Shown here piece by piece: positions 3,371-54,067 of a stretch of 64,000 nt of DNA. Under the pieces are notes generated by a model, which was given only the letters and a program-made list of their open reading frames with translations, did not search any database and was not told the origin of the DNA. A program made the translations under genes and the position numbers. The stretch lies in the IMG/VR virus record IMGVR_UViG_3300032227_001172, positions 1 through 64,000 of that record, one strand, 5' to 3'. Position 1 is the stretch's first letter, and each line of letters starts with the position of its first letter. This DNA comes from a virus. Lineage: Duplodnaviria > Caudoviricetes.

Positions 3371-3390
3371 ATACACATATAACAGTGTAT
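3371..3390. promoter_or_regulatory. back-to-back GTGTAT motifs (- strand 3376-3371, + strand 3385-3390); putative divergent phage promoters
   Basis: One copy points at each of the two divergent genes. Confidence 0.6.
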
Positions 3391-3415
3391 ACTATATTAT
3401 TAGGAGGGTAATTTT

Positions 3416-3772
3416 ATGAAATATTTTATGTTGATTTTATTAATATTATATTCTAACATTGGTATGGCTAAGCCTCCAATTTTTTTAGATTCTTATGAAG
3501 AAGCCAAGAGCGTTTCTAAGCAATTCGATCAGACAATGATATTAATGTTTAGTGCGGAGTGGTGTCAGTATTGTCAAAAATTTAAACATGATATATCAAA
3601 TAATATTGATCAATTTGAAGATATCACAATTTGCATTATAGATATAGAATCTAATGAAAAATTAGTTAAAGAATTTAAAGTTAAAAAAATTCCTACAATA
3701 ATTTTATTTGATAAAAAAGGTAAACAAAAAAAAGAAATCATAGGATACACAGATATTAAAGCATTAAAATAA
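3416..3772 (+). CDS. exported thioredoxin-family protein
   Basis: Signal-peptide-like N-terminus; FSAEWCQYC active-site motif; cis-Pro motif IPT. Confidence 0.85.
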   Translation: MKYFMLILLILYSNIGMAKPPIFLDSYEEAKSVSKQFDQTMILMFSAEWCQYCQKFKHDISNNIDQFEDITICIIDIESNEKLVKEFKVKKIPTIILFDKKGKQKKEIIGYTDIKALK

Positions 3773-3773
3773 T

Positions 3774-4103
3774 ATGGATCATTTAGCATTAATTCTAATA
3801 ATTCTTCTTATTCTTAGTCATATAATATCCATATCGCTTGGAATAGGTTTGGGGTATTTATTGTTTAGAAATCGTAGTCAAGATAATTTAGCGACCCCTT
3901 CGAGTTTTTTTAATTCTAAGCATGTAGATAATAATGTTAACGATTGTAAAAAACCTAAATTAGATATTGATGAAACCAAAATAGTATTAAACGTATCAAC
4001 AGATGGTATGGAAAAAAAATTTGATAATATGACACAGGAAATCAAAACACAAAACGATACAGTTAATTCTGTGAATAAACTAAAGCAAATGAAAGGCAAA
4101 TAA
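3774..4103 (+). CDS. single-pass membrane protein
   Basis: Long hydrophobic N-terminal helix followed by a polar tail ending VNKLKQMKGK; 2 nt upstream of the actin gene. Confidence 0.75.
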   Translation: MDHLALILIILLILSHIISISLGIGLGYLLFRNRSQDNLATPSSFFNSKHVDNNVNDCKKPKLDIDETKIVLNVSTDGMEKKFDNMTQEIKTQNDTVNSVNKLKQMKGK

Positions 4104-4105
4104 TT

Positions 4106-5107
4106 ATGATAGGATTAGACGTAGGTACGAGTTTTATAGTAGCGGCCTCTTATGACAAAGATAATATTGTATTTAAAGATTTTAGAGACGCTTTTTATAT
4201 AATAAAACCGAATACTCCAATAGCAGCAAAAATGGTTGAGAAAGGATTACAAGGAAAGGTATTTATTAAAGATTCAGATGGATCTTTTGTAATACTAGGA
4301 AAAGATGCTATAGAAAAAGCTGTTGAAAGAAATGAAACAGCTAGAAGGCCAATGTATCGTGGGGTTGTTTCTGTAAAAGAAAAAGAGGCAAAAAGAATAT
4401 TAGCTTATATTTTAAAAGAAGTAGTTGGACAAGCTAAAAAAAATAATACTAAATTAGTATTCTGTGTTCCAGCACAACCTGTTGATCAAGAAGATGATGA
4501 TTTTGATGTTGGTTATCATGAAGATGTAGTAAAAACAATTTTATCAGAAGTAGGATATGATGCTAGATCTATTAATGAAGCTGAAGCACTATGCTATGCA
4601 GAATTAGAAGAAACTGATTATACAGGGATTGGGATTAGTTGTGGTGCGGGAATGATGAATGTTTGTGTTATGCTAAATGGTGAGCCAACTGTTGTTTTTA
4701 GTACAACAAAGTCTGGGGATTGGGTAGATCGTATGAGTGCGGTTGCGACAGGAGAACCCGATAGCGTCGTACAGGTTGAGAAGGAGGGCGGTGGATTTAA
4801 AATAGGTGAGCCAAACGACAATCCCGTTTTAAGTGCCGTAGCGTCTTATTACGAGCGTCTGATAGAATATACAGCAAAACAATTGTCTCATGCTCTTTCA
4901 GATCACAAAGCATTACCTAAATTTAAAAATCCTATTAGGATTGTAGTAGCTGGTGGTACGTCACAAGCTAACGGCTATATAGATAAATTACATGAAAAAT
5001 TATTACAATCTAATTTTCCATTAATTATAGAACAAGTCAAGCACGCTTCTGATCCCCTACACTCAGTCGCTAAAGGCTGTTTAATAGCAGCAAATGTTAT
5101 TTCTTAA
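4106..5107 (+). CDS. actin-superfamily ATPase, volactin-like
   Basis: Phosphate-1 IGLDVGT, RRPM, connect-1 INEAEA, phosphate-2 GISCGAGMMNV, GDWVD, adenosine VVAGGTS, connect-2 SVAKG. Confidence 0.9.
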   Translation: MIGLDVGTSFIVAASYDKDNIVFKDFRDAFYIIKPNTPIAAKMVEKGLQGKVFIKDSDGSFVILGKDAIEKAVERNETARRPMYRGVVSVKEKEAKRILAYILKEVVGQAKKNNTKLVFCVPAQPVDQEDDDFDVGYHEDVVKTILSEVGYDARSINEAEALCYAELEETDYTGIGISCGAGMMNVCVMLNGEPTVVFSTTKSGDWVDRMSAVATGEPDSVVQVEKEGGGFKIGEPNDNPVLSAVASYYERLIEYTAKQLSHALSDHKALPKFKNPIRIVVAGGTSQANGYIDKLHEKLLQSNFPLIIEQVKHASDPLHSVAKGCLIAANVIS

Positions 5108-5159: not shown

Positions 5160-5945
5160 ATGAAATATTTAATTTATTACTATATACTGCTTTTTTACAG
5201 TAGTCTGGTATATGGAGGAACAATCGATCCTAATGCATCAGATGCTGAACATATACAATATGGACAAAAATATATTGCAGTATTACCTATTGCTGGTAAA
5301 TTAATAGATGATCAACATCCCTTTTTTAAAGCATCTTGTGTCGTAATAGATGAATATAATATACTGACAGCAGCACATATAGTGCATAATTCATCAGATC
5401 AATATGTAATTTTTGATAATAAAGAATACCCATGTGCATTAATTGCTAGTCATATAAATTTTGATCATAAAAAATTTGGCCCTGATGATATTGCTTTAGG
5501 TAGATTAAAAAAACCAATTCTTTTAAAGACATATCCAGAACTATATACAGATAAAGATGAATTAGATAAGATTTGTGGAATGGCTGGATATGGTTTTACT
5601 GGTAGTTTTCGTACTGGTTATCAAAATTTTGATCATAAAAAACGTGGAGGATCTAATATCATAGAAATGATTCAAAACGACATGTTGGTTTTTTCAGTAA
5701 ATAAAGGAATTAAGACCCAGTTGGAATTTTTAATTGCTCCAGGAGATAGTGGTGGTGGTTTATTTATTAATCAAAAATTAGCAGGAATACATTCTCATAT
5801 ATATACAACAGATGGAAAAGCTGATTCAAATTATAATGACTCTGCTTGTTGTACTAGAATAAGTAGACATATACAATGGATTCATGATACTAAATCATTT
5901 TTAAAAAAAACTATAGAGGAAAAAAATGTTAAGAAGGGAATGTAA
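5160..5945 (+). CDS. trypsin-like (S1) serine protease, probably exported
   Basis: Triad motifs LTAAH, DDIAL, PGDSGGG; hydrophobic N-terminus. Confidence 0.9.
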   Translation: MKYLIYYYILLFYSSLVYGGTIDPNASDAEHIQYGQKYIAVLPIAGKLIDDQHPFFKASCVVIDEYNILTAAHIVHNSSDQYVIFDNKEYPCALIASHINFDHKKFGPDDIALGRLKKPILLKTYPELYTDKDELDKICGMAGYGFTGSFRTGYQNFDHKKRGGSNIIEMIQNDMLVFSVNKGIKTQLEFLIAPGDSGGGLFINQKLAGIHSHIYTTDGKADSNYNDSACCTRISRHIQWIHDTKSFLKKTIEEKNVKKGM

Positions 5946-6843
5946 GCTATTACCGCATATTCGTCAAGACTTATTTGGTTTAAGTACGCAATCTATGCAG
6001 TTTTTCCCTTGGCCTATTAAAAAATTTGATGTCGAAAAGACATGGTATCTTTCTGAAGGAGAAGATATAACTGTTGGTGTTATAGACACTGGATGTGACC
6101 TTAATCACGAAGACTTAAAAGATAATTTACTTTTAGGTAGAAATTTTGTAGAAAATAATAATGATCCACAGGACCGCAATGGGCATGGTACTCATGTTGC
6201 CGGAACAATTGCTGCTATAAATAATCAATATGGTATGGTTGGAGTAGCTCCAAAAACAAAAATTTTACCAGTAAAAGTTCTAGGAGATGATGGTGGAGGA
6301 TCCAATGCTTCTGTAGCAAATGGAATACTATGGGCAGTTGATAATGGCGCAAAAATTCTTACAATGTCTTTAGGTTCTCCGCATAAATCTAGAAACATAG
6401 AAAGAGCATTGCAATATGCTGTTGATCATAAAGTAACTATATTTTGTGCTGCAGGGAATAGCGGAAATAATGTTGATATAATGTATCCAGCTAAATATCC
6501 TGAAACTATAAGTATTGGAGCAATAGGACAAAATTTATCAGTATCAGATTTTAGTTGTTGCGGAGATAGTCTTGATTTTGTAGCTCCCGGAGAAGATATT
6601 ATCAGCGCAGTTCCCGGCAATAAGTATGCTAAAATGACGGGAACAAGTATGGCAACTCCATATGCTGTTGGATGCGCCTCGTTATTACTATCCCTAAGAA
6701 AAAAACAATTTAATAGCAAGCACCTAGAAGATAAAAATGGATATATCGATGAATTTAAAAAAGTATCAATCCCAATAACTGGTCGATATGCAAACGATAG
6801 GAATTACCAAGGAAATGGTATTATTCTACCTATTACTTCTTAA
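5926..6843 (+). CDS. subtilisin-like (S8) serine protease
   Basis: VIDTG, HGTHVAG, AAGNSG, GTSMATP. Confidence 0.95.
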   Translation: MLRRECKLLPHIRQDLFGLSTQSMQFFPWPIKKFDVEKTWYLSEGEDITVGVIDTGCDLNHEDLKDNLLLGRNFVENNNDPQDRNGHGTHVAGTIAAINNQYGMVGVAPKTKILPVKVLGDDGGGSNASVANGILWAVDNGAKILTMSLGSPHKSRNIERALQYAVDHKVTIFCAAGNSGNNVDIMYPAKYPETISIGAIGQNLSVSDFSCCGDSLDFVAPGEDIISAVPGNKYAKMTGTSMATPYAVGCASLLLSLRKKQFNSKHLEDKNGYIDEFKKVSIPITGRYANDRNYQGNGIILPITS

Positions 6844-16752: not shown

Positions 16753-16758
16753 GTGTAT
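16753..16758 (+). promoter_or_regulatory. GTGTAT motif
   Basis: Intergenic copy immediately before a hairpin. Confidence 0.5.
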
Positions 16759-18302: not shown

Positions 18303-18308
18303 GTGTAT
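18303..18308 (+). promoter_or_regulatory. GTGTAT motif
   Basis: Intergenic copy of the recurrent motif. Confidence 0.55.
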
Positions 18309-49709: not shown

Positions 49710-51584
49710 ATGAAGAAATATATCCCTTTGCACGTACATTCTATGTACAGCTTATTGGACGGTTTGTCTAAACCAGATCAAATTGCTGATAGATGTATAG
49801 AAATAGACGCTAAATCATGTGCTTTAACAGATCATGGTAATATCGCCGGTGCTGTTAAATTTTATACTCAGATGAAAAAAAGAGGTATAAAACCAATACT
49901 GGGTTGTGAACTATACATTAGCGACAATGATGCTTCTATACAAGATAAAAATAATAAAAAATTGAGCCATTTTATAGTATTGGCTAAAAACTATCATGGA
50001 TGGCAAACCTTAATTAAAATTGTATCCGAATCAAATAAACCTGAATTTTATTATCATAAACCAAGACTAGATCTTAATCGTCTAGGAGAATTACTGGATG
50101 GTAATTTGATAGGTTTTTGTGGACATCTAGGATCAACCCTCGCAGATAAGTTGGTTATCGGAGATACTATATCTAATGACTGGAGAAACATTGGTCTAGA
50201 ATATATTGGTAAATTTAAAGATATATTTGGTAAAGAAAATTTTTTCTTAGAATCTCAATTAATGGATAAAGATAATTTATCCGTACAATCTCCTTTGACT
50301 GATTGTATTAGAGAATTAGCCAAATTAACTAATACGAAAGTTATTTGTACTCCAGACGCACATTATTGCAGACGTTCTGATGCTGTTGATCAAAGAGTAT
50401 TGCTATGCAATAATCTAAAGACTACATTGCCAGAGATCAATAGAAAATTAAATAATAATGAAGAGATAGGACTAAGTGCATTTTTCCATTCAGAAAATTT
50501 TCATATTTTATCTCAAGAAGAAATTCATACTCTCCATACCCAAGAAGAAATCAATAATACAAATATTGTTGATGACATGTGTGAAGAATATGATATTTTA
50601 AGTAAGCCAAACCTACCTCCATTTGATTGTCCGGATGGCTATGATGACGCTGAATATCTGAGACAGTTATGTAGAAACGGATGGAAAACCAAAATAGCCA
50701 ACACCGTTCCTGCTGAAGACCAACAAGCTTATATAGATAGAATCAAATATGAACTAGACGTATTACAGGGGGCTAACTTGTCTAGTTATTTTTTGATCGT
50801 TCAAGATATAGTTAATTATGTTAGAGGTAATAATTGGTTGCCTGGACCCGGTAGAGGTTCTGCTGCTGGTTGTTTAGTTTCATATTTAATAGGTATTACT
50901 AATATAGATCCCATTAAATATAATCTTATGTTTGATAGGTTCTATAATGCTGGCCGTAATACTAAAGAACACATATCAATGCCAGATATAGATGTGGATG
51001 TTCCGATTAATAAACGAGAAGATATTATTCAGTATATTAAAAATAGATATGGTATTGACAAAGTATCTCAAATGATTACATTCAATACTATTAAAGGCAG
51101 AGGCGCTTTAAAAGATGTATTGAGAGTATATGGTAATATTTCTTTCGAAGAAATGAATAGAATTACCAAAAATATACCAGATGAAGCTAAAATTGCAGAC
51201 GAATTGCAAGTCATGAAAGACGAAACAGGAGAGGCATCCATTATTAGATGGGCCTTAGAAAATAATGCTGATAAGCTCAAAGAATGGTGTTTCATAGACC
51301 AACAAGGAGAATTGCAAGGACCGCTTGCCAAAAGGTTTGAACAGGCTATAAGATTAGAAGGCGTGAAGTCAAACCAATCTAAACACGCAGCGGGTATTGC
51401 TATTAGTTCTCAAACATTAAGCGATATTTGTCCGATGGTATATGATTCCAAAAACGATCAGATGATTGCTGGTATGGAAATGCAAGATCTAGAAGCAATT
51501 GGCATTATTAAGTTTGATATTCTCGGAGTAGCGATGTTAGACAAAATTATGACTATTCAAGATTTATTAAAAGAAGGAGACTAA
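49710..51584 (+). CDS. dnaE: DNA polymerase III alpha, N-terminal part (PHP, palm, thumb)
   Basis: LHVHSMYSLLDG, TDHG, GCE, DAHY, GRGSAAG, PDIDVD, HAAG, KFDILG, then stop. Confidence 0.95.
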   Translation: MKKYIPLHVHSMYSLLDGLSKPDQIADRCIEIDAKSCALTDHGNIAGAVKFYTQMKKRGIKPILGCELYISDNDASIQDKNNKKLSHFIVLAKNYHGWQTLIKIVSESNKPEFYYHKPRLDLNRLGELLDGNLIGFCGHLGSTLADKLVIGDTISNDWRNIGLEYIGKFKDIFGKENFFLESQLMDKDNLSVQSPLTDCIRELAKLTNTKVICTPDAHYCRRSDAVDQRVLLCNNLKTTLPEINRKLNNNEEIGLSAFFHSENFHILSQEEIHTLHTQEEINNTNIVDDMCEEYDILSKPNLPPFDCPDGYDDAEYLRQLCRNGWKTKIANTVPAEDQQAYIDRIKYELDVLQGANLSSYFLIVQDIVNYVRGNNWLPGPGRGSAAGCLVSYLIGITNIDPIKYNLMFDRFYNAGRNTKEHISMPDIDVDVPINKREDIIQYIKNRYGIDKVSQMITFNTIKGRGALKDVLRVYGNISFEEMNRITKNIPDEAKIADELQVMKDETGEASIIRWALENNADKLKEWCFIDQQGELQGPLAKRFEQAIRLEGVKSNQSKHAAGIAISSQTLSDICPMVYDSKNDQMIAGMEMQDLEAIGIIKFDILGVAMLDKIMTIQDLLKEGD

Positions 51585-51771: not shown

Positions 51772-52457
51772 TGATTAATTATAACAAAATTTGCGTATTT
51801 GATTTTGAAACAGACGGTACTGATACTAGTTCATGTAGCCCAGTGCAGTTAGCCGCTGTCATTATTGATCCTCTTAAATTAGAAGTGATTGCCAATTCCG
51901 AATTTAACATCTATTTTAAACCAGAAGTGTTAGAGAAGGATCCAAAATATGAGTATACGACAGATGTTGTAGATTTTCATGCAAAAGTTCAGGGCTGTTC
52001 AAAAGCAGATATCATGGATAGATGGCTACAATATCCATCACAAGAGCATTCTTGGAAAATGTTTGTAGATTATTTAGATAAATATCATACCCGAACATCA
52101 AAGAAAAGTCAGTTTTCTGCACCAATAGCAGCTGGATATAATATATATAGATTTGATCTTCCTATAGTTGATAGACTAAGCAAAAAATATGGGAATACTA
52201 ATAAAGAAAATAGATCAGACATATTTTATCCTAGAGACGTAATAGATATTATTAATTTAGTATTTTATTGGTTTGAACATAATAGTGAATTGAAAAGCTA
52301 TACATTGGATTCTTTAAGAGATTACCTCGGTATTTCTAAAGAAGGGGCACACGATGCTGTCAAGGATATTAGAGATAGTGCAGAAGTCTTGATCAGATTT
52401 ATGAAACTGCATAGGCGTTTATCTAACAGTATAAAGTTTAAGGATTCGTTTAAATGA
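51771..52457 (+). CDS. DEDDh 3'-5' exonuclease (DnaQ-like)
   Basis: FDFET, GYNIYRFD, HDAVKD. Confidence 0.92.
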   Translation: MINYNKICVFDFETDGTDTSSCSPVQLAAVIIDPLKLEVIANSEFNIYFKPEVLEKDPKYEYTTDVVDFHAKVQGCSKADIMDRWLQYPSQEHSWKMFVDYLDKYHTRTSKKSQFSAPIAAGYNIYRFDLPIVDRLSKKYGNTNKENRSDIFYPRDVIDIINLVFYWFEHNSELKSYTLDSLRDYLGISKEGAHDAVKDIRDSAEVLIRFMKLHRRLSNSIKFKDSFK

Positions 52458-54067
52458 AACATTTTGCTTACTCTTGTGGTTGTAGTTTTGATGTTATAGA
52501 TGATAGCAATCTTAAGATAAATTTTGATCCTGTTCATCACCCAATAAACTTTGATTGCAAAAAAACATGGGATTTGATATCTGATGGGAATACTAAGGGG
52601 TGTTTCCAATTAGAATCTAGGCTTGGTAAATCAATGGCGAAAAAGCTCAAGCCAGAGAATATAGAACAATTATCCGCTTTAATTTCTATATTACGTCCGG
52701 GTTGTTTAGAGGCGATTAGAGATGGTAAAAGCGTAAGTAACCATTATATAGATAAAAAAAATGGACAAGAGTCGGTCGATTACTATCATCCGTCATTAAA
52801 AAATGTACTACATGCCACATTCGGCGAAATGATTTATCAAGAACAGGCCATGGAAATAGCCAAACATATTGCTGGATTCGATTTGCAAGAAGCAGACAAC
52901 CTAAGAAAAGCTATTGGCAAAAAGAAACCAGAAGAAATGGCAAAACTGAAATTAAAATTTATGCTTGGAACTAAAGCACTCAAAATTGTAAATGATAATG
53001 AGGCTGAAGAAATTTTCGGATGGATTGAAAAAAGCCAAAGATATAGCTTTAATAAGAGTCATGCCGTAAGTTATGCCGTCAACGCATATTTATCTGCTTA
53101 TACTAAAGCACATTTTCCTCGTATTTTTTTTGCATCTTATTTGAGATTTGCTAAAGATAAAATTGATCCTAAAGCTGAGATCAAAGCTCTGGTACAAAAT
53201 GCCACAGAAATGGACATCTTAGTCTGTGTGCCAGATATTAGAAATTTAAATGAATTATTCATAATGAAGAATAAAAAAATATATTTTGGTTTAACAGATA
53301 TTAAGGGTTTTGGTCAGTCTGTATATAAGAAACTGATTGCTTTGGTTAAAGATCAGTCAATTAATTTTGATAATATAAGCTGGTCAGAGTTTGTTGTTAA
53401 GATATTAGTTAATCTAAACTCCATTGCAGCTAAATCTTTAATAGAAAGTGGTGCTTTGGATTATTTCAAAATGACCAGAACATCTATGCTGTTAGAGTTA
53501 AGTTTGGTTTCAGAATTAACAAAAAAAGAAGTAGAGTTTGTAAATCATAATTTAGTGGGATGCAGATCGATTTATGAGTGCTTATATAAATTATGTCATA
53601 ATGCTAAATTAACATCTCGTAGAAAAACTATTATTGAAGGATTATTAAATACATTATCTAATCCACCATATTCATTGGAAGATAGTCCTGAATGGATTTC
53701 TGATACCGAAGAAGAAGCATTGGGTTGTAGTATTACTTGTTCTAAAGTAGACATGTATGATATTGGAATGACAAATTGTAATTGTAAAGATTTTAAAAAT
53801 ACTCTATTAAATGATATCATTTTATGTGGAGAAATTTCTACTATTAGTGTTACTAAAACTAAGACAGGAAAAAACCCCGGATCAGAAATGGCCTTTGTAT
53901 CATTATCAGATAGTTATGGTCTAATAGATAGTGTAATATTTTTTCCAGAAGCATATAAAGAATGTCGTAATATTTTATTCGATAATAATGTAATTATTGT
54001 TAAAGGTAAAAAAAGTAAAAATGGCGATTCATTAATTGTCGAAAAGGCATTTATTCCGAAAACTTGA
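52454..54067 (+). CDS. dnaE: DNA polymerase III alpha, C-terminal part (fingers, HhH, OB)
   Basis: GCFQLES, LRPG, IYQEQ, ADNLRKAIGKKK, YSFNKSHA, FGLTDIKG, LIESGALD, MAFVSLSD. Confidence 0.95.
   Translation: MKHFAYSCGCSFDVIDDSNLKINFDPVHHPINFDCKKTWDLISDGNTKGCFQLESRLGKSMAKKLKPENIEQLSALISILRPGCLEAIRDGKSVSNHYIDKKNGQESVDYYHPSLKNVLHATFGEMIYQEQAMEIAKHIAGFDLQEADNLRKAIGKKKPEEMAKLKLKFMLGTKALKIVNDNEAEEIFGWIEKSQRYSFNKSHAVSYAVNAYLSAYTKAHFPRIFFASYLRFAKDKIDPKAEIKALVQNATEMDILVCVPDIRNLNELFIMKNKKIYFGLTDIKGFGQSVYKKLIALVKDQSINFDNISWSEFVVKILVNLNSIAAKSLIESGALDYFKMTRTSMLLELSLVSELTKKEVEFVNHNLVGCRSIYECLYKLCHNAKLTSRRKTIIEGLLNTLSNPPYSLEDSPEWISDTEEEALGCSITCSKVDMYDIGMTNCNCKDFKNTLLNDIILCGEISTISVTKTKTGKNPGSEMAFVSLSDSYGLIDSVIFFPEAYKECRNILFDNNVIIVKGKKSKNGDSLIVEKAFIPKT

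Follow-up and report, generated by a model that had tools for sequence, protein, structure and literature searches.

A pair of adjacent genes on the plus strand of an uncultured tailed virus (Duplodnaviria; Caudoviricetes) encodes a small transmembrane protein of 109 amino acids (aa; positions 3774-4103) and an actin-like ATPase of 333 aa (4106-5107) that belongs to the volactin family. The pair lies in the first 64,000 nucleotides (nt) of the IMG/VR record IMGVR_UViG_3300032227_001172, the stretch of DNA analysed here (hereafter the window), and is considered, with a probability of about 0.58, to constitute a two-gene phage cytoskeletal module, in which the tail of the transmembrane protein (hereafter the adaptor) would anchor ATP-driven volactin filaments at the inner membrane of the host. 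The source record is a complete virus genome of 230,691 base pairs (bp) with direct terminal repeats of 123 bp, and PHROG matches to TerL, portal and tail fibres are present in the full record. It is a tailed jumbo phage (>200 kb, with terminase, portal and tail genes), which bears out the assignment of the actin gene to a phage in the initial annotation of this DNA.

The actin-like protein and its family

The protein encoded at 4106-5107 is a member of the volactin family and not of the MreB, FtsA or ParM families, in agreement with what the initial annotation had proposed from its motifs. It matched the Pfam family Volactin (PF25216) with 221.7 bits (cut-off 35; E 2.2e-65) over positions 3-321 of the 321-position profile, and a six-frame search of the genome left this result for the actin gene unchanged. 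Matches to other actin families remained below their cut-offs: MreB/Mbl (PF06723) scored 24.4 bits (cut-off 27) over residues 57-125 only, the NCBIfam MreB models 16-17 bits (cut-offs 293-366), and the NCBIfam models for MamK, BeeR and salactin 28.3, 26.6 and 24.6 bits (cut-offs 400, 530 and 400, respectively). Pfam and NCBIfam scans returned no ParM or StbA match, no PHROG family was found for the protein, and sequence search gave no relative of solved structure.

Every motif block on which the proposal was based is present in the translation, namely GLDVGT, RRPM, PAQPVD, YH, INEAEALCYAEL, TGIGISCGAGMMNVC, GDWVD, ATG, YYERLIEY, GGTS and PLHSVAKG. The nucleotide site comprises D5, G7 and T8 (phosphate-1), E158, S178, G180, G182 and N185 (an atypical phosphate-2), G204, D205 and D208, and the adenosine residues G283, G284 and T285. 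All 15 invariant columns of a 44-sequence alignment of the volactin family are found in the phage actin. The five actin motifs had been described as intact, which is correct with one qualification, namely that phosphate-2 reads S-C-G-A-G and departs from the canonical D-x-G-x-G. This departure is a trait of the whole family, archaeal members included, and in the 44-sequence alignment S178, G180 and G182 show little or no variation.

An AlphaFold2 model of the actin, computed from the same alignment, reached a predicted local distance difference test (pLDDT) value of 96.7 and a predicted template-modelling score of 0.93. The nearest solved chains in Foldseek searches were MreB (including 2wus, the MreB-RodZ complex), the BeeR filament (template-modelling (TM) score 0.74) and the MamK filament (TM score 0.72), which share only 14-20% identity with the phage actin, while EutJ, PilM, FtsA and actin itself were lower-ranked matches. 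The protein thus groups with polymerising actins and not with non-polymerising actin-fold enzymes, the latter being the outcome that had been named beforehand as one that would speak against a cytoskeletal protein. Among the viral structures of BFVD the model matched just Hsp70s and generic actin-fold proteins, with TM scores of at most 0.62.

An exhaustive profile-free search with the actin recovered 935 clusters (50% identity) at E≤1e-3 and 274 at E≤1e-30, and its close relatives, which are abundant, were confirmed in 170 stretches of IMG/VR and fall into 1,746 protein clusters (E≤1e-5). In a scan of species-level genomes, family members were detected in the Archaeoglobaceae, Planctomycetota, Desulfobacterales (including the complete chromosome of Desulfosarcina variabilis), Bdellovibrionota, Hyphomicrobiales, Acidobacteriota, Patescibacteria and one Heimdallarchaeon, and a copy at about 450 bits is carried by 47 of the 251 genomes of the haloarchaeal phylum. 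The phage actin is about 32-36% identical to distant members of the family; among the deposited genomes of INPHARED it matched only two uncultured huge phages, LR756511 and LR745208, at about 33% identity.

Phylogenetic relationships were inferred from 119 family rows, together with MreB from the same bacterial genomes, by a quick maximum-likelihood search with IQ-TREE, with support from the Shimodaira-Hasegawa-like approximate likelihood ratio test (SH-aLRT) only. All 119 family rows are set apart from MreB by a branch that is 3.4 changes per site long and has 100% support. The phage clade is tight (99% SH-aLRT) and nested among metagenomic representatives, of which those checked have phage-like contexts, and it is not sister to the haloarchaeal volactin core. 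The kinship with haloarchaeal volactin that had been suggested therefore stands at the level of the family, a specifically haloarchaeal affinity being too narrow. The phage actin represents one branch of a broad family with members in many bacteria as well.

Some family members deviate in their architecture. Metagenomic forms of about 700 aa (P0122, P0127 and P0148; 39-53% identical to the phage actin) carry an intein (Intein_splicing and LAGLIDADG domains, with Hint in one) at either of two conserved sites, after about residue 203 (before G-D-W) and after about residue 180 (inside phosphate-2). P0139 is a fusion with a ParB-type helix-turn-helix (HTH) domain N-terminal to the volactin domain, and in P0199 the volactin domain is followed by Wzz, GNVR and a ParA/MinD-like P-loop domain, which is the layout of a BY-kinase/polysaccharide co-polymerase.

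The membrane adaptor and its predicted binding to the actin

The adaptor gene ends 2 nt before the actin gene and begins 1 nt behind a thioredoxin gene (3416-3772), coordinates and gaps that had been given correctly at the outset. Gene order and conservation were compared across 80 related viral loci, all belonging to one phage lineage, with identities expressed relative to the window copy. The actin is present in 80 of the 80 loci at 74-88% identity, RuvB in 75 (61-84%), a trypsin-like protease in 59 (39-56%), a subtilase in 33 (46-69%) and the thioredoxin likewise in 33 (26-46%). By tblastn the adaptor gene (29-48% identity) is found directly upstream of the actin gene in 75 loci, and since four of the five apparent exceptions carry a diverged copy of the same build at that position, the actual figure is about 79 of 80. 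The gap between the two genes is usually 1-6 nt, and one locus (L068) has an open reading frame (ORF) of 202 aa (739-1347) between them. The flanks are variable: the genes that separate the pair from RuvB, and those that separate it from the proteases, are present in some of the 80 loci and absent from others. The conserved unit thus consists of two genes and not of three, so that of the three-gene operon originally proposed only the adaptor-actin pair is retained.

The adaptor (3774-4103, plus strand), as judged from the alignment of its homologs, has a short N-terminus, one transmembrane helix, a variable linker and a conserved tail. The helix (residues ~4-30; 3783-3863) is variable in sequence and always hydrophobic, the 19-residue hydropathy maximum being 1.8-3.3 in 40 of 40 aligned homologs. 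Its C-terminal flank is more basic than the N-terminal one in 37 of the 40, and an N-out, C-in topology is therefore predicted, with the tail in the cytoplasm like the actin. The tail (residues ~62-109; 3957-4100), which from its invariant columns and the co-fold described below is the predicted actin-binding element, consists of a strand region, I-D-x-x-K-x-V...T-D-G, and a terminal helix, K-L-K-x-x-K, with invariant K102, L103, K104 and K107. No known family was found for the adaptor in Pfam, PHROG or NCBIfam, and its homologs of about 100 aa, which form at least 464 clusters, all lack Pfam domains and informative names. A search of the ESM Atlas returned only its own viral cluster, and the isolated adaptor models poorly (pLDDT 0.62).

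The actin was co-folded with the adaptor tail (residues 55-109), a check suggested by the initial annotation, using self-supplied paired alignments, three runs and three controls. The interface score ipSAE was 0.70 (0.68-0.71 in the three runs) against 0.02 for the best control; the calibration set comprised 80 solved complexes, of which 58 reached the mark, and 110 mismatched pairs, of which 2 did. At least 93% of the contacts were common to the runs, and pLDDT values for the partner did not fall below 74. In the model the interface is formed by tail residues 69-109 with the invariant K-L-K helix at its centre: the helix (residues 96-107) packs against actin residues 164-172, the 191-193 hairpin and the C-terminal helix 316-331, while tail residues 86-94 pair with the actin strand 19-26 of the subdomain IA hairpin. 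The K-L-K helix is thus predicted to dock in the cleft between subdomains IA and IIA, a placement derived from the secondary-structure map of the AlphaFold2 model. This 'barbed-end' cleft is the site of ParR on ParM and of many actin-binding proteins on actin.

Upstream proteins of a similar kind also accompany more distant actins. In a relative with a 53%-identical actin, the upstream gene encodes a transmembrane protein of 120 aa with the same tail. At 49%, 46% and 39% actin identity the upstream protein lacks a transmembrane helix and has a basic, amphipathic or coiled-coil N-terminus, and it ends in the same type of tail (...DKLKKML..., ...DKLRQLKK... and ...SKLRNLL..., respectively); in a relative at 42% identity a ClpP-like gene is found upstream instead. 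Some bacterial relatives have Cys-rich upstream proteins without a transmembrane helix. A hidden Markov model (HMM) of the phage tail, searched against 2,273 ORFs of 70 loci outside the phage clade, matched 15 of 133 adjacent same-strand ORFs versus 3 of 2,070 others (Fisher p 1.7e-16), which may be taken as a strong positional signal and not as proof of homology.

Other upstream genes were noted in passing. In the huge phages LR756511 (L082:3756-3986, 76 aa) and LR745208 (L083:3325-3948, 207 aa), the upstream ORFs have neither a transmembrane helix nor a Pfam match and end in basic tails (...A-L-K-A-V-R-K-K... in the latter), and may represent another adaptor variant. In three metagenome-assembled genomes of Bdellovibrionota or Acidobacteriota (L118, L125 and L127), a volactin-like gene with an N-terminal extension is preceded by an ORF of ~344-375 aa that starts D-P-G-x-F-Y-x-K (possibly of actin fold; no Pfam match) and by an ORF of 110-166 aa, and is followed by a protein of ~400 aa with a motif, S-[SV]-N-[KR]-[IL]-T-P-F, that resembles S-S-V-N-K-L-K of the phage tail.

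Proposed mechanism and alternative explanations

In the proposed mechanism the upstream gene product would be a bitopic inner-membrane protein, N-out and C-in, whose otherwise disordered cytoplasmic tail would fold onto the actin, the β-strand of the tail extending the hairpin of subdomain IA and the terminal K-L-K helix entering the IA/IIA cleft. Filaments of the phage's own actin, driven by ATP, would in this way be held at the host inner membrane, probably by one end. If the cleft is buried within the filament, a protein that binds there through its tail would hold filament ends, which would fit the tip contacts of volactin; in Haloferax volcanii, volactin forms dynamic filaments in vivo that are membrane-bound by their tips, and it is a determinant of cell shape (PMC10869688). 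The module is located in the replication/early block of the genome (RuvB, DnaB, primase and a split DnaE-type polymerase), and a tubulin gene was looked for in the genome and not found; together, these make the spatial organisation of replication or of virion assembly relative to the membrane the most likely role for the module.

Of the elements of this mechanism, the family, the fold, the conserved pairing of the genes and the predicted topology are established here, binding of the tail to the actin has the support of a model, and polymerisation, end-tethering and the role are inferred. Several points weigh against this interpretation. The case for polymerisation is carried over from a single archaeal protein and from structural neighbours of just 14-20% identity, and the canonical Asp of phosphate-2 is missing in the actin, though this is so across the whole family. 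Actin-fold proteins that bind the tail of a bitopic partner need not polymerise, as illustrated by PilM and PilN, and the docking of a helix in the IA/IIA cleft might serve to cap or sequester subunits instead of tethering them. The calibration of the co-fold is only rough owing to the self-supplied paired alignments. Synteny in related phages is partly inherited, the loci being non-independent, and the background of the tail-HMM search includes spurious ORFs and related loci, with most of the matches individually weak.

The alternative that survives best, itself improbable, holds that the protein is a non-polymerising actin-fold ATPase kept at the membrane by its bitopic partner and serving as a scaffold or switch, in the manner of PilM on PilN or FtsA on the divisome. 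Complexes of PilM with PilN and of FtsA with FtsN do occur among the structural matches of the actin, the predicted interface is a short tail in a cleft, and phosphate-2 is atypical. However, the filament formers MreB, BeeR and MamK outscore PilM, FtsA and EutJ by TM score, the founder of the family forms dynamic filaments in vivo (PMC10869688), and the conservation of the actin, far above that of the neighbouring genes, fits a polymer with several interfaces.

Next in standing, and likewise unlikely, is a take-over of host shape or division, in which the filament, instead of positioning phage DNA or capsids, would replace or perturb MreB or FtsZ and thereby enlarge or reshape the cell or block its division. 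The function of volactin in the shape of Haloferax cells and the prediction of an anchor in the inner membrane would accord with such a role, as would the frequent occurrence of secreted proteases and a periplasmic thioredoxin among the neighbours and the fusion of a bacterial family member to a Wzz/BY-kinase envelope module. These envelope-related neighbours are, however, variable and unlinked to the adaptor-actin pair, and the replication block houses the module, with RuvB as its neighbour in 75 of the 80 loci.

Little credence is given to the view that the adaptor gene is an unrelated neighbour of the holin, spanin or exclusion type, kept in place by shared phage ancestry. All 80 loci do represent one phage lineage, and small proteins with an N-terminal transmembrane helix and a charged tail are common in phage lysis cassettes. 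Nevertheless, the two genes stay 1-6 nt apart while the flanking genes vary, the tail motif persists beside actins of 39-53% identity even where the transmembrane helix is replaced, and the co-fold passes with controls near zero, the tail being predicted to be cytoplasmic.

The least credible explanation is segregation of phage genomes by a system of the ParMRC or AlpC/AlpA type, with a centromere and an adaptor that binds DNA, such as might operate in carrier-state or plasmid-like maintenance. The adaptor-before-actin layout, the helix in the barbed-end cleft (both recalling ParR and ParM), the N-terminal ParB-HTH domain of one family member and the Cys-rich upstream proteins of some bacterial relatives are reminiscent of such a system, but here the adaptor N-terminus is a transmembrane helix and not a DNA-binding fold, no centromere-like iterated repeat array was found around the module, and a match to ParM or StbA is lacking.

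Neighbouring genes, known systems and significance

The thioredoxin gene upstream of the pair (3416-3772, plus strand; Pfam Thioredoxin, 55 bits) encodes a WCQYC motif and an N-terminal signal-like segment, and its description as an exported thioredoxin is to that extent sustained. Its membership of the system is not: it is a variable neighbour, found in 33 of the 80 loci and in a changing position, at times downstream of the actin or apart from it, and it was rejected as a component on the basis of this synteny. Just downstream of the actin lie a trypsin-like serine protease with a signal peptide (5160-5945) and a subtilase (5926-6843), which overlap by 20 nt and whose positions vary among the loci. 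The 202-aa insert of L068 and an HNH gene 3' of the actin in another locus (L086; 7022-7330, weak Pfam match) are likely mobile genes.

The motif GTGTATACT (3385-3393, plus strand), located 23 nt before the thioredoxin start, is a possible, unverified promoter element. An exact copy at 16753 and a copy with one mismatch at 18303 each lie just upstream of a plus-strand ORF. As a recurrent promoter, GTGTAT(ACT) was rejected, since 8 matches with at most one mismatch were counted in the window against 17.8 expected, and the motif that had been noted upstream of the three genes has no statistical support. Scans for sigma-70 promoters and terminators gave results at chance level.

The G+C content is about 31%, and the other genes of the window include those for DnaB, primase, the split DnaE-type polymerase, ribonucleotide reductase and RuvB. 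The polymerase (phrog_405) is divided between the ORFs 49710-51584 and 52454-54067, which correspond to the N-terminal and the C-terminal half of the profile, and beyond the window two giant minus-strand ORFs are present (85360-100596, 5,078 aa; 114835-128604, 4,589 aa). The terminases of the nearest deposited phages in INPHARED are only about 25% identical. The stretch was contained in four DNA sequencing runs of one study, one of them possibly its source, and no RNA run was listed.

The closest characterised counterpart is the volactin of H. volcanii (VolA, HVO_2015), which belongs to the same Pfam family (PF25216) as the phage actin, and its neighbour HVO_2016. The phage actin scores 222 bits on PF25216 against about 450 bits for archaeal members. 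A DUF7139 (CdpA-like) protein with 3-4 transmembrane helices is encoded directly upstream of the archaeal volactin gene in 21 of 23 loci; in Haloferax the gene for the CdpA-like HVO_2016 likewise lies upstream of that for volactin, CdpA itself has a transmembrane domain that a disordered linker connects to a small C-terminal domain, and volactin is in the list of proteins from the CdpA pull-down (PMC12126565). The phage partner, with one transmembrane helix and about 100 aa, is smaller than partners of the HVO_2016 type (3-4 helices, 250-340 aa) and is encoded by a virus and not a chromosome. No DUF7139 match was found in it by Pfam, and its layout is analogous to that of the archaeal proteins. 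By hhalign, the final 22 residues of the phage tail align with the archaeal V-D-x-Q-V-x-G-L-K-x-L-K-G over 22 columns (E 1.3e-3, probability 18%), which is a lead only and does not establish that the phage tail and the archaeal CdpA-like proteins are homologous.

In ParM-ParR-parC, and also in Alp7A/Alp7R, an actin-like polymer and a small adaptor are likewise encoded adjacently, and the C-terminal helix of the phage adaptor is modelled in the IA/IIA cleft, the site of ParR on ParM; in contrast, the phage actin is not of the ParM family, its adaptor has a transmembrane helix in place of a DNA-binding domain, and centromere repeats were not found. AlpC-AlpA of the Corynebacterium glutamicum prophage CGP3 is similar in combining a phage-encoded actin-like protein with an adaptor. 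It has been linked to viral DNA replication (PMC4446434). The actin in that case is regarded as belonging to a different family. AlpA is a DNA-binding adaptor that joins phage DNA to the filament, whereas the adaptor described here is a membrane protein. MreB-RodZ offers the example of a bitopic membrane protein whose cytoplasmic part binds a bacterial actin, and MreB is the closest solved fold; the two families nevertheless differ, with a Pfam score for MreB below its cut-off and a long branch between them. RodZ binds subdomain IIA of MreB through a helix-turn-helix domain and not through a C-terminal helix in the cleft. We know of no membrane adaptor of PhuZ. PhuZ and TubZ are self-encoded tubulin polymers by which jumbo phages organise the infected cell (PMC7950403, PMC8314001), and differ in belonging to the tubulin superfamily, no member of which was found in this genome.

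The actin family and the adaptor principle are thus already known, and what is new is the viral setting and the type of adaptor. Full-text literature searches found no description of volactin in phages, in keeping with the initial remark that no volactin-type actin from a phage had been characterised; the two papers on the archaeal proteins (PMC10869688 and PMC12126565) draw no phage link, and no such system emerged from recent reviews of jumbo phages or from literature searches for actins encoded by phages and for actin-like proteins of jumbo or huge phages. 'Moraphage' (PMC12619734) was considered as a possible description of this lineage and rejected, as it represents another lineage and the paper contains no discussion of actin.

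A wider reading, which is put forward tentatively and is itself rather doubtful, is that the volactin actins of archaea, bacteria and phages would all use an adjacent cognate adaptor, whose C-terminal amphipathic helix of the K-L-K type would dock in the barbed-end cleft while its N-terminus would select the cargo. The N-terminus might accordingly be a single transmembrane helix in the phage clade, a CdpA-like domain of four transmembrane helices in archaea, and an amphipathic, coiled-coil, Zn-ribbon-like or ParB-HTH element elsewhere. On this view, the tip anchor of archaeal volactin would have its smallest version in the phage pair, and these abundant jumbo phages of aquatic habitats would build a third kind of phage cytoskeleton, made of membrane-anchored actin, beside PhuZ/TubZ and AlpC.

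The cytoskeletons described so far for phages comprise tubulins (PhuZ and TubZ) and the actin of a single prophage, AlpC, with its DNA adaptor AlpA. The actin reported here is from another family, of which only a haloarchaeal member has been characterised, and it is coupled to a membrane adaptor. Its carriers are uncultured jumbo phages of marine and fresh waters, which make up a large lineage of wide distribution. With only 109 and 333 aa in its two proteins, and with four invariant residues singled out by the binding model, the pair lends itself to direct testing in vitro. The phage pair could also shed light on the membrane attachment of volactin filament tips in archaea and on whether their anchor is the CdpA-like neighbour.

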